This document shows positions 45,119 through 63,239 of a stretch of DNA of 64,000 nt, in pieces. Numbering within the stretch: position 1 is the first letter of the stretch; each line of letters starts with the position of its first letter. The stretch lies in the NCBI RefSeq assembly GCF_004010195.1, contig NC_057725.1, positions 32,206,045 to 32,270,044 of the forward strand. The letters are read 5' to 3'. The DNA is from Chiloscyllium plagiosum. Taxonomy: Eukaryota. Both the position numbers and the translations under genes were made by a program. Under the pieces are notes generated by a model. It had not been told where the DNA came from. It saw only the letters and a program-made list of their open reading frames with translations, and ran no database searches.

Positions 45119-45181
45119 TCAGGGATCAATTGTACGATTGGTTGGGATCAGGTCAACTCCAAGATCCTTTGCAACAGAGTT
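45119..45181 (-). CDS. Ldh_2 gene terminal coding exon
   Basis: gcttag|[26 protein letters not shown] candidate at 44756-44751 on the minus strand. Confidence 0.75.
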   Translation of the reverse strand, partial: NSVAKDLGVDLIPTNRTIDP

Positions 45182-48100
45182 CTAAGCAATGTTAGGAAAG
45201 GAAATTGATTAAAACACAGAACAACAATTCTGCAGTTTACCTAAAGGATGACGTGTTGTTAAACTCCACAGGATAATTACTGATTGGTCACAGTTAATGC
45301 CGGTTGTATGTGGGCCGTGTTACCTGTGTTCTTTGTCCTACACAGACTCGGTCACATATTAATCCCTATCAAATTCAGCCTGCCATACTCAAACCAAATG
45401 ACATCAGGATCCTCTCACAAGCTGGCCTTGTCGCACACAGACTGCATCACATGAAGATCCTGTCACATTTTTATCATGTCAAATGTTTGGCTTGTCACGT
45501 GTAGCTTCGTCATATAGACCCCCTGTCACACACAGAACTCCTCACATTTGGTTCAGGTCTCAAGACAATTCAAGCACATTGCAGGTGCTTTTACACACAG
45601 ACCCCATCACACACACAGTCCCTGCTACACACAGACCCCATCACAAACACAGGCCCTGCCACACACAGACCCCATCACACACACAGGCCCTGCCACACAC
45701 AGACCCCATCACACACACAGGCCCTGCCACACACAGACCCCGTCACAAACACAGGTCCTGCTACACACACAGGCCCTGCGACATACAGACCCCTATCACA
45801 CACACAGGCCCTGCTACACACAGACCCCGTCCCACACACAGGCCCTGCCACACACAGACCCCATCACACACACAGACCCTGCTACACACAGACCCCATCA
45901 TACACACAGGCCCTGCTACACACAGACCCCATCACACACACAGGCCCTGCTACACACAGACCCCATCACAAACACAGGTCTTGTCACACATAGACCCCAT
46001 CTCACACACACAGGCCCTGCTACACACAGACACCATCACATACAGGCCCTGCCACACATAGACCCCATCACAAACGCAGGCCCTGTCACACACAGACCCT
46101 GCCACACACAGCCCAGTCACAAACAGACCCAGTCACACACAGACCCCACCATATACTGACCCTGTTACACACACAGACCCACTCACACACAGACCCCGTC
46201 GCACACACAGGCTCTGCCACATACAGACCCCATCACAAACACAGGCCCTGCCACACACAGACCCTGCCACACACAGCCCAGTCACATACAGACCCAGTCA
46301 CACTCACAGACCCAGTCACACACAGGCCCCATCATACACTGACCCTGTTACACATACAGACCCAGTCACACACAGACCCTATCACTCCCTGATCCCGTCA
46401 TACGCTGACCCAATCACTCACAGTCCCAATCACACACAGACAAGTCACACACAGATGCAATGACACACAGACCCAGTTACACACACACCCCGTCACACAC
46501 AGACTCATTTATACACAGACCCATTCACACACACACCCTGTCACACGCAGACCCAGTCACACACAGACTCAGTCACACACAGACCCAGTTACATACAGAC
46601 CCTGTCACACACAGACCTCGTCACACACAGTCTCATTCACACACAGACAAGTCACAGCCAGATGCAGTGACACACAGACCCAGTTACACACAGATCCAGT
46701 AACACACAGGTCCTGTCACATACAGACTACCTTCACACACAGTCACACACACAGATGCAGTGACACACAGTCCCAGTTACACACAGACCCCATCATACAC
46801 AGACCCAGTCACACGCAGACCCAGTCACACGCAGACCCAGTCACACACAGACCCAGTCACATGCTGACCCAGTCACACAGTCCCATTCACACACAGACAA
46901 GTCACAGCCAAATGCAGTGACAAACAGAACCACTCACACACAGACCCAGTCACACGCTGATCCAGTCACACACAGACCCAGTCACACACAACCAGTCACA
47001 GCCAGATGCAGTGTCACACAGACTCAATTACACACAGACTCAGTTATACGCAGGTGCGATCACACAGAGACCCCGTCACACATAGAGCCCATTGCACACA
47101 GACTCAGTTACCTACAGACCCAGTCATACAGAGACCCAGACATACACAGACCCTGTCACACACAGTCCCCATTGCATACAGACTCAGTTACACACAGACC
47201 CTGTCACACCCAGACCCTGTCACACGCTGACCCGGTCACAGACACACCTGGTCACACATAGACCCAGTCACACACAGACCCAGTCACACACAAACCCAAT
47301 CATACGCTGACCCAGTCACACGCTGACCCAGTCACACACAGTCCCATTCACACACAGACAAGTCACAGCCAGATGCAGTGACACACAGACCCAGTTACAC
47401 ACAGATCCAGTAACACACAGGTCCTGTCACATACAGACTACCTTCACACACAGACCCTTTCGCACACAGGCCTCTTCACATACAGACCCTTTCATCTGCA
47501 GTCCCACTCACACACAGACCTTGTCACACACAGTCCCATTCACATGCAGACCCAGTTCCATGCAGACCCAGTTACACACAGACCCAGTTATACACAGACC
47601 CCATCACACGTTGACCTGGTCACACGCTGACCCGGTCACACACAGACCCTGTCACACACAGGCCCTGTCACACACAGTCCCATTCACATGCAGACCCAGT
47701 TACACACAGACCCAATGTGAAACAGGCAAATCTGGAAACTCCATAGTCTTCAGGCATTAACCTCCTTGATCTATAATCTGTCCATTCAGCTAATTCCCAT
47801 TCAGTAACCTCACCCATCTTTATATTTAATTAGGAATCACTTGAGATGCATGACATTCCCTTAACAAAGCCATGCTGACTATCCTAACTCATTGCTGACT
47901 TTCTAAATGACAGTTTATCCAATCTTTCAGGATTGTTACTAATAATTTGCCTACCACCAAAGTAGACTAGCTGGCCTATAATTGCTTGGCATTTCCTTTG
48001 TGCCCTTTATAAAAATGGAACCACATTTACTTTTGTCCTGTCCTTTGGCACCACCTGTGTCTAGTGAAGATTGAAATATAATCGTCAGAACATCTGCTAT

Positions 48101-63100: not shown

Positions 63101-63239
63101 GCAAAGACTGTAAAGAACTGTGAGCCCAATGAGTGATGTTCCAATTCATTCTGTGGTGGACAAGTTACTCTACTTACAATTAAACCGTGTTTTAGTGCTT
63201 GCATAGAATAAAATCCTGCAATGCCGTAGTGATTAGATC
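45119..63239 (-). CDS. Ldh_2-family (class-2 malate/L-lactate/L-sulfolactate dehydrogenase, YjmC/ComC/AllD-like) oxidoreductase, 5'-partial: complement(join(45119..45181,49055..49165,52565..52660,54468..54586,60257..60392,61348..61446,63032..63085,63178..63239))
   Basis: Eight GT-AG exons in consistent phase (740 nt, about 246 aa) give [75 protein letters not shown]...[16 protein letters not shown]...[31 protein letters not shown]...GQCFVAINP...VLTPGDPE...GGIPY...*. The SNHYG, GTNP, LDMATS, GYKGYGL and PGDPE motifs are hallmarks of this family. Confidence 0.92.
45590..47715. repeat. CA-rich minisatellite (cacacacagaccc...) of about 16-18 bp units in the last Ldh_2 intron
   Basis: Visible tandem units; source of the THRP/HTDP pseudo-ORFs. 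Confidence 0.92.
47790..48730 (-). mobile_element. CR1 LINE ORF2 fragment
   Basis: [12 protein letters not shown]...[16 protein letters not shown]...NYRPASL. Confidence 0.8.
49055..49165 (-). CDS. Ldh_2 gene internal exon
   Basis: ttacag|[37 protein letters not shown]|gtgagt. Confidence 0.9.
49250..49505 (+). mobile_element. CR1 3' fragment with internal deletion
   Basis: Matches 7430-7860 with the middle part missing. Confidence 0.8.
50120..52450 (+). mobile_element. 5'-truncated CR1 LINE (ORF2 RT through 3' end) in a Ldh_2 intron
   Basis: [62 protein letters not shown]; same subfamily as 16205-20760. Confidence 0.92.
52565..52660 (-). CDS. Ldh_2 gene internal exon
   Basis: tttcag|[32 protein letters not shown]|gtgcgt. 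Confidence 0.9.
54468..54586 (-). CDS. Ldh_2 gene internal exon
   Basis: tttcag|(S)[39 protein letters not shown]|gtgagg. Confidence 0.92.
55230..55550 (-). mobile_element. HE1-type V-SINE (reverse)
   Basis: Reverse complement of the tRNA head, V-domain and CR1-like tail. Confidence 0.85.
58108..58289. mobile_element. Short Penelope-like fold-back insertion
   Basis: Inverted halves; duplication aattccta(a/g)gtgatg at 58093-58107 and 58290-58304. Confidence 0.75.
59214..59321 (-). mobile_element. Penelope-like terminal fragment
   Basis: Same terminus as 4238; flanked by tacagcacatgga at 59201-59213 and 59322-59334. Confidence 0.7.
60257..60392 (-). CDS. Ldh_2 gene internal exon
   Basis: ttttag|[45 protein letters not shown]|gtaagg. 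Confidence 0.92.
61348..61446 (-). CDS. Ldh_2 gene internal exon
   Basis: ttccag|[33 protein letters not shown]|gtatat. Confidence 0.92.
63032..63085 (-). CDS. Ldh_2 gene internal exon
   Basis: caacag|[18 protein letters not shown]|gtaaag. Confidence 0.88.
63178..63239 (-). CDS. Ldh_2 gene internal exon
   Basis: ttgcag|(G)[20 protein letters not shown]|gtaagt. Confidence 0.88.

Follow-up and report, generated by a model that had tools for sequence, protein, structure and literature searches.

AqE, an Ldh_2-family gene of the bamboo shark, is predicted to encode an NAD(H)-dependent 2-hydroxy-acid dehydrogenase

Enzymes of the Ldh_2 superfamily form homodimers that bind NAD(P)H in an extended conformation, and their key residues, in the numbering of AllD, are His44 and His116 together with the cofactor residues Thr156, Pro158, Asp174, Lys224 and Gly306 (PMC3527362). 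The best characterised relative of the gene described here, by HMM and PDB score, is the L-sulfolactate dehydrogenase ComC of Methanocaldococcus jannaschii (PDB 2X06, NCBIfam NF040650). ComC serves in the synthesis of coenzyme M, a pathway that is not known to occur in animals. The enzyme accepts several L-2-hydroxycarboxylates, and two further solved relatives, the 'malate dehydrogenases' 1V9N of Pyrococcus horikoshii and 3I0P of Entamoeba histolytica, were named by homology alone, their function not having been established (bioRxiv 10.1101/495713). The Veillonella protein Vpar_1595 is reported to be a malate-lactate transhydrogenase that forms its own clade and is active without free cofactor (PMC13034625). 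In Caenorhabditis elegans, F36A2.3 and VF13D12L.3 are presented as members of a third, archaeal-like family of malate dehydrogenases with no mammalian homologue, and a presumptive null of F36A2.3 is reported to be lethal (PMC8659336). Puzakova, Puzakov and Soldatov in 2018 named the animal gene AqE ('aquatic enzyme'), assigned it to Ldh_2, found it in cartilaginous and bony fishes and in invertebrates, reported its loss in lungfish and tetrapods, and proposed sulfolactate as its substrate (bioRxiv 10.1101/495713). Their preprint holds no assay, active-site comparison or gene-context evidence; the last two are added here. A follow-up in J Mol Evol in 2021 reportedly found AqE conserved in non-tetrapod vertebrates, lost in Cypriniformes and decaying in Salmoniformes.

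The window analysed here, a 64,000-nucleotide stretch of Chiloscyllium plagiosum DNA, contains the last eight exons, the 3' part, of the shark AqE gene. This is the gene that RefSeq annotates as 'uncharacterized oxidoreductase YjmC-like' (XP_043561655.1), with no difference in kind from the published AqE; given that entry and a pattern of retention in fishes and loss in tetrapods in print since 2018, the novelty proposed in a first-pass annotation of these letters falls away. Splicing the window letters of the minus strand joins eight coding exons across seven GT-AG introns (AG at 8/8 acceptors, GT at 7/7 donors) into an open frame, the 740 nt comprising a split first codon, 245 codons and a single terminal stop, in agreement with the uninterrupted C-terminal part of about 246 amino acids read at first pass. 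The six motifs quoted there likewise all lie on the minus strand in the correct order. From 5' to 3', the first exon in the window (63178..63239) holds His119, the equivalent of the AllD catalytic His116; an 18-codon exon (63032..63085) holds Thr143-Ser144, at the position of AllD Ser140-Asp141, and a clade-specific Arg151; a 33-codon exon (61348..61446; Ldh_2 E 5e-11) carries the cofactor residues Thr159, Pro161 and Asp177; one of 45 codons plus 1 nt follows (60257..60392; Ldh_2 E 4e-11); and the exon at 54468..54586 (Ldh_2 E 2e-9) contains Lys236 and the conserved Arg261/Trp263 loop. A 32-codon exon (52565..52660) comes next, and the last exon has 20 codons plus stop (45119..45181); between them a 37-codon exon (49055..49165) contains Gly315-Asp-Pro-Glu at the cofactor-specificity site. 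The intervening introns measure 92, 1585, 955, 5670, 1807, 3399 and 3873 nt, and the last contains a noncoding 2.1-kb tandem array of period 16 and about 131 copies (45593..47714).

Aligned with XP_043561655.1, the spliced product matches residues 117-361 at every position and without a gap (245/245); six further carpet-shark proteins share 85-98% identity with it. Residues 1-116 gave no tblastn match in the 761 nt upstream of the first window exon; since these residues lie outside the window, the intactness of the 5' exons rests on the RefSeq model. The first-pass annotation had also placed the gene beside COX8 and PSMD13, and both neighbours were recovered. COX8, on the minus strand, is identified by its second coding exon (35514..35624; Pfam COX8 E 5e-11), its first (42658..42780) being read by eye and having no Pfam match. 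PSMD13 lies on the plus strand, where its apparent start codon and the most distal exon examined delimit 2474..29691, and all three exons tested (22154-22240, 28348-28473 and 29575-29691) match PDB sequences of 26S subunit 13 (E 2.5e-11 to 1.7e-19).

Membership of Ldh_2, claimed earlier from motifs, was borne out by profile searches of exons and full protein and by structure comparison. When seven of the exons were scanned singly against Pfam, six matched Ldh_2 colinearly over profile positions 112-330 of 333, and two alone passed the gathering score (42.6 and 43.2 bits); the last exon had no Pfam match, nor did a 33-residue stretch containing the 18-codon exon, which by itself is too short to scan. 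The full-length whale-shark protein (P0001) scored 383 bits against PF02615 (cut-off 38.8). A structure model of P0001 (mean pLDDT 75.7) has the three-domain non-Rossmann fold. In a Foldseek search it had 27 matches with E<=0.001; the 16 of these that were listed are all type-2 dehydrogenases, headed by 1V9N and 2X06 (E about 1e-28, TM about 0.64). In sequence, the best solved relatives are 1V9N (231 bits, 35% identity), ComC 2X06 (189), a Thermus protein (164), the Entamoeba protein (161), AllD (153), DpkA (122) and YiaK (120). ComC was also the best NCBIfam model in 4/4 animal proteins, at 263-267 bits against a cut-off of 500. None of these four proteins reached an equivalog cut-off in any of five family models; for P0001 the scores were 188 against 356 and 180 against 496 bits for AllD, and 162 against 336 for HcxB/YbiC. 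AllD, YiaK and HcxB of Escherichia coli and DpkA of Pseudomonas share with AqE the fold and the invariant histidines at 26-32% identity.

The invariant histidine pair and the cofactor residues are all present in AqE, six of them in window exons; His47 and Arg51, which lie outside the window, were read from the RefSeq protein, whose window part is identical. In an alignment of 111 vertebrate rows, His47, Arg51, His119, Lys236 and Gly315 occur in all 111, and Thr159, Pro161 and Asp177 in 110. The active site hardly varies between hagfish and teleosts. ComC shares the His, Thr, Pro, Asp, Lys and Gly motifs in alignment, but at 34% identity it has neither Arg151 nor Arg261/Trp263, nor the insert of six residues that precedes Lys236 in the animal clade; 1V9N and 3I0P, like AqE, have an insert before the Lys motif. 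Arg261 is present in 110/111 and Trp263 in 111/111 vertebrate rows, in a loop that is aligned through gaps and has a pLDDT under 50 in the model. Arg151 occurs in 108/111 vertebrates versus 5% of prokaryotic loci and aligns beside the adenine-contacting Phe147 of AllD, a position from which it could bind a 2'-phosphate and permit the use of NADP(H).

Phylogenetic placement supports the vertical descent proposed at first pass. In trees built with FastTree and a quick IQ-TREE search without bootstrap, the shark row falls with chimaera, cyclostome and Ictalurus furcatus rows in a vertebrate clade (support 99), which nests in a larger clade (99) with only eukaryotes among its named members. The first tree held 230 rows, 102 of 147 representative proteins having passed the length filter, and the second 75 rows hand-picked from the 230. 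No prokaryotic locus fell within the animal/eukaryote clade, and the tree gives no settled sister for the animal clade; a Meloidogyne protein labelled F36a2 belongs to the same animal clade as AqE. Orthologues among the matches listed come from sharks, rays, chimaera, hagfish, lamprey and ray-finned fishes. Tetrapods were named neither among the best 120 of 5124 matches (0/102 organism-named rows) nor among the best 120 of 446 short matches, in keeping with the supposed absence from land vertebrates such as humans, and cypriniforms were named in neither set; 14 unnamed vertebrate-level rows among the best matches were placed by the tree within ray-finned fishes. Of the earlier suggestion that the gene was kept in fishes and lost in mammals, the first half stands, but the published loss lies at the level of lungfish and tetrapods rather than mammals.

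The genomic neighbours of prokaryotic relatives were surveyed at 80 loci (32-41% identity to AqE), kept from 587 confirmed in a scan of 5/64 parts. A gene resembling L-2-hydroxyglutarate oxidase is directly adjacent and co-oriented at 7/80 loci on five separate branches, taken as a raw count, and 4/7 of these neighbours score above the NCBIfam cut-off; it is missing at the other 73 loci and at 12/12 further loci with 1.5-kb flanks. A 2-hydroxy-acid-racemase-like gene is adjacent at two of the 80. The commonest neighbour is aspartate kinase (17/80), and since all 17 loci belong to Bacteroidota this adjacency is probably lineage synteny. At the two prokaryotic loci nearest by motif, L002 and L008, the neighbours are unrelated. 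No methanogen ComC anchor exceeded the NF040650 cut-off (0/5 and 0/81), and plasmid matches carried no informative names among the 50 of 762 records listed.

On sequence and structural resemblance, we consider it reasonably probable, at roughly 60%, that AqE is an NAD(H)-dependent dehydrogenase acting between a small 2-oxo acid and the corresponding L-2-hydroxy acid; the identification of the gene itself is all but certain. AqE is predicted to be cytosolic and, more tentatively, its substrate may bear an additional anionic group, for which Arg261, conserved in fishes and lying beside Trp263, is a possible partner. Within this class no single substrate is likely. Sulfolactate/sulfopyruvate, the published proposal, is possible but quite doubtful; malate/oxaloacetate and L-2-hydroxyglutarate/2-oxoglutarate are each rather doubtful, and another 2-hydroxy acid is simply unlikely. 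In mammals, L-2-hydroxyglutarate arises from side activity of LDH and MDH. It is conceivable, if rather doubtful, that AqE is specialised for L-2-hydroxyglutarate, as an NAD(H)-linked dehydrogenase (2-oxoglutarate reductase) serving as a redox sink at low oxygen, and that tetrapods lost AqE and use the LDH/MDH side activity; non-tetrapod animals would then have a dedicated enzyme for producing or recycling L-2-hydroxyglutarate, which is epigenetically active. The weak lead to this suggestion is the oxidase-like gene pairing in the distant relatives. Our literature search found no assigned animal substrate, as the first-pass annotation had stated, subscription journals being mostly outside the search. 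Drosophila CG10512, presumably a member of this enzyme family, was found in expression lists only.

As a gene AqE is ordinary; its interest is that of an orphan enzyme with a near-invariant active site, a reported loss in tetrapods and a worm homologue that is essential according to the portion of PMC8659336 consulted. Its substrate, once named, would reveal a metabolic step dropped at the move to land and would test the 'aquatic enzyme' idea, which is already strained by the terrestrial insects, mites and nematodes whose AqE homologues appear among the protein matches. The comparisons below narrow the assay panel, AllD-type and DpkA-type reactions looking unlikely, and 2-oxoglutarate/L-2-hydroxyglutarate is an added candidate pair.

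The strongest competitor, though still somewhat unlikely, is that the substrate of AqE is a sugar acid, comparable to the 2,3-diketo-L-gulonate that YiaK uses in ascorbate breakdown, or a compound new to the Ldh_2 family. The family is diverse in its substrates, the malate-lactate transhydrogenase activity having been assigned to a member as late as 2026 (PMC13034625), and members of the animal clade conserve pocket residues of their own and reach no known equivalog cut-off. Against a sugar acid, YiaK is the weakest of the five family models in 4/4 animal proteins (137-162 bits, 156 for P0001, cut-off 316), and is 27.6% identical to AqE, and no recurrent neighbour tested at the 80 prokaryotic loci indicates sugar-acid catabolism. 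A cyclic-imine reductase of the DpkA/LhpD type, acting on pyrroline-2-carboxylate or piperideine-2-carboxylate in hydroxyproline, D-proline or lysine catabolism, is quite improbable. DpkA has the fold and histidine pair of AqE, and Arg151 could allow NADP(H) binding by another route, but DpkA takes only ninth place among the 13 solved sequences (122 bits versus 231 and 189), and its NADPH motif Arg314-Arg315 (AllD positions 308-309) is replaced by Pro-Glu in 103/111 and 109/111 vertebrate rows, the site being placed via AllD from the published description, with ComC and DpkA sequences outside the residue alignment and trees. Furthermore, the assigned vertebrate reductase of pyrroline-2-carboxylate (Pyr2C) is CRYM (PMC8779045). 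The hydroxyproline pathway raised at first pass is weakened by both points.

The purine-ureide pathway, raised alongside it, fares worse. Ureidoglycolate is produced in fishes, AllD comes nearest to AqE among the three E. coli members (31.8% identity), and the equivalents of its Arg48 and His116 are kept; a ureidoglycolate dehydrogenase catalysing the last step of fish purine breakdown is nevertheless very improbable, because the AllD Ser140-Asp141 signature is Thr-Ser in 106/111 and 110/111 vertebrate rows, Met251 aligns with Trp, and both AllD equivalog cut-offs are missed. Amphibians and zebrafish, moreover, keep allantoinase and allantoicase (PMC8919083); amphibians, however, have reportedly lost AqE, and the AqE matches listed name no cypriniform. 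That the locus is a contaminant, was acquired recently by horizontal transfer or is no longer functional would be consistent with 5' exons that lie outside the window and with a gene known here from genomic letters and a RefSeq model, but this has a negligible probability in view of the seven canonical introns, the open frame, the full 361-residue RefSeq model and the orthologues, nested in the tree, across cartilaginous fishes, cyclostomes and ray-finned fishes. An AqE orthologue is also named among the differentially abundant proteins of barramundi mucus (PMC13030388).

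The AqE gene lies on the minus strand of the window, where eight exons identified by splice sites and open frame (63239-63178, 63085-63032, 61446-61348, 60392-60257, 54586-54468, 52660-52565, 49165-49055 and 45181-45119) join into 245 codons and one stop, at the end. Every acceptor carries AG and 7/7 donors carry GT, and the six motifs quoted in the first-pass annotation occur on this strand in the expected order. Pfam Ldh_2 is matched, colinearly, by six of the seven exons scanned, and the last exon has no Pfam match. The product is identical at all 245 residues to residues 117-361 of C. 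plagiosum XP_043561655.1, annotated as 'uncharacterized oxidoreductase YjmC-like', and 85-98% identical to six further carpet-shark proteins; residues 1-116 are encoded past the window end. The predicted splicing is backed by the sequence and the RefSeq model. The initial call of an intact, eight-exon Ldh_2 frame was right, and beside an open frame identical to the RefSeq protein, contamination or a dead gene is scarcely credible. The last AqE intron contains a minisatellite (45593-47714, period 16, ~131 copies), and LINE reverse-transcriptase-like remnants were seen by eye in introns at 18108-18305, 25444-25665 and 51076-51225. Assembly gaps (4376-4440, 32136-32884 and 42483-42516) all fall outside the AqE span.

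The neighbours had also been correctly named as COX8 and PSMD13. COX8 is downstream of AqE on the same strand; its exon 2 matches Pfam COX8 (E 5e-11), and exon 1, identified by eye, has no Pfam match. PSMD13 is convergent on the plus strand, and all three exons tested match the PDB subunit. In human 11p15.5, PSMD13 presumably lies next to a COX8 pseudogene. The COX8 intron holds a 1.7 kb minisatellite of period 33 (39612-41311).

The gene is already known and its evolutionary story already published; a follow-up study of AqE reportedly dates from 2021. Puzakova, Puzakov and Soldatov gave AqE its name, assigned it to the Ldh_2 family close to sulfolactate dehydrogenase, and suggested sulfolactate as substrate without an assay (bioRxiv 10.1101/495713). 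They reported the gene from fishes, invertebrates, algae and fungi; lungfish, tetrapods and land plants were reported to lack it. In PMC8659336, worm homologues are described as a third family of malate dehydrogenases that lacks a homologue in mammals, and a presumptive F36A2.3 null is reported lethal; PMC13030388 names AqE protein among those more abundant in the mucus of male barramundi. No paper in the literature searched, including PMC6791719, PMC7414014 and PMC13751858, was found to assign a substrate to an animal member.

Using the whale-shark protein as query, 7999 candidates were scored, giving 5124 matches; the best 120 were inspected, and the 102 with an organism name comprise 12 cartilaginous fishes, 2 cyclostomes, 83 ray-finned fishes and 5 invertebrates. 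These 102, which represent a listing rather than a genome search, include no tetrapod, lungfish, coelacanth, cypriniform or salmonid. Fourteen unnamed vertebrate-level entries of the same 120 place within the ray-finned clade in the tree. The best 120 of 446 short matches, likewise a listing, include beetles, ticks, mites, a scorpion and parasitic worms, and name no tetrapods, cypriniforms or salmonids. The proposal of an enzyme retained in fishes and lost in mammals agrees with the listings, but as a discovery it was already in print as AqE, with the loss placed at lungfish and tetrapods. In both trees the shark sequence falls within a vertebrate clade (99) that is nested in a larger one (99). 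Every named member of the larger clade is eukaryotic, no named prokaryotic locus falls inside it, and its sister group is unresolved. Short predictions of 125-181 aa on long contigs in Umbra (P0348), Dallia (P0356) and Lampris (P0319) may stem from split annotations or from decay of AqE in certain fish lineages. Two long homologues, P0123 (777 aa, with several matched stretches) and P0014 (574 aa), may be explained by tandem duplication or by fused gene models.

Against Ldh_2 the whale-shark protein reaches 383 bits, and its predicted structure (mean pLDDT 75.7) agrees with the fold of the type-2 dehydrogenases. Family-defining residues, given in AllD numbering in PMC3527362, were transferred via E. 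coli AllD and counted over 111 vertebrate sequences. Because His44, Arg48, His116, Thr156, Pro158, Asp174, Lys224 and Gly306 are conserved in 110-111 of them, AqE is predicted to be an active enzyme under strong selection. In shark-protein numbering, Arg151, which aligns next to an adenine contact, is found in 108/111 vertebrates, 31/40 other eukaryote-clade sequences and 5% of 87 prokaryotic ones; it could have a role in NADP(H) use, which would count against an NAD(H) assignment. Arg261 and Trp263, numbered likewise, are almost invariant in vertebrates, but their loop is gappy in the alignment and poorly modelled. Since the fish proteins begin directly at the domain, without a long extension, a cytosolic enzyme is suggested. 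Unlike most fish proteins, the invertebrate orthologues P0115 and P0122 have basic, Ser-rich, mitochondrial-presequence-like N-terminal extensions.

From residue signatures and the NCBIfam and solved-relative rankings, we favour AqE as an NAD(H)-dependent L-2-hydroxy-acid dehydrogenase (probability about 0.6). ComC, the L-sulfolactate dehydrogenase, is the top NCBIfam model for all four animal proteins (263-267 bits versus a cut-off of 500), and none of the four reaches any equivalog cut-off; solved relatives score, in bits, 1V9N 231, ComC 189, Thermus 164, Entamoeba 161, AllD 153, DpkA 122 and YiaK 120. Action on a sugar acid or a wholly new substrate is less probable; the family is still yielding new activities such as malate-lactate transhydrogenase (PMC13034625). 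The purine-ureide and hydroxyproline pathways proposed at first pass fared poorly. An imine reductase is quite unlikely: AqE has Pro-Glu in place of the NADPH-binding Arg-Arg pair of DpkA, and vertebrate Pyr2C reductase is already assigned as CRYM (PMC8779045). Ureidoglycolate dehydrogenase is very improbable, for the Ser140-Asp141 signature of AllD is replaced by Thr-Ser, and uricolysis is kept in amphibians and zebrafish (PMC8919083), taxa for which the loss of AqE is reported or no AqE entry is listed.

Prokaryotic gene context bears on the favoured 2-hydroxy-acid chemistry. Neighbours were clustered for 80 loci (32-41% identity), the best of at least 587 confirmed in 5/64 parts of the scan. 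A gene resembling L-2-hydroxyglutarate oxidase directly adjoins the Ldh_2 gene, co-oriented, in seven (L003, L006, L014, L016, L017, L021 and L042), which occupy five separate branches of archaea and bacteria. Four of these neighbours exceed the NCBIfam cut-off of 299 (551, 552, 576 and 329 bits) and three fall below it (236, 213 and 106 bits, the last a cut-off gene). The oxidase neighbour is missing in the other 73 loci and in 12/12 further loci with short flanks, and none of the prokaryotic loci surveyed lies inside the animal clade. For the wider branch the pairing, of which no description was found in the literature searched, would point to 2-hydroxy-acid chemistry and, only weakly, to a particular substrate; it is unlikely that AqE is a dedicated L-2-hydroxyglutarate dehydrogenase that tetrapods have lost. 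In two Chloroflexota loci (L028:6199-7545 and L036:6115-7410) a nickel 2-hydroxy-acid-racemase-like gene of the LarA family, under NCBIfam cut-offs, directly follows the Ldh_2 gene. Aspartate kinase recurs nearby in 17/80 loci, all Bacteroidota (e.g. L078:6165-7484), which may reflect lineage synteny or an oxaloacetate/aspartate link. Two open frames, one of 690 aa (L001:3978-6047) and one of 659 aa (L038:1454-3430), have the Ldh_2 domain at the end and are possibly N-terminal fusions, or merely long upstream open frames.
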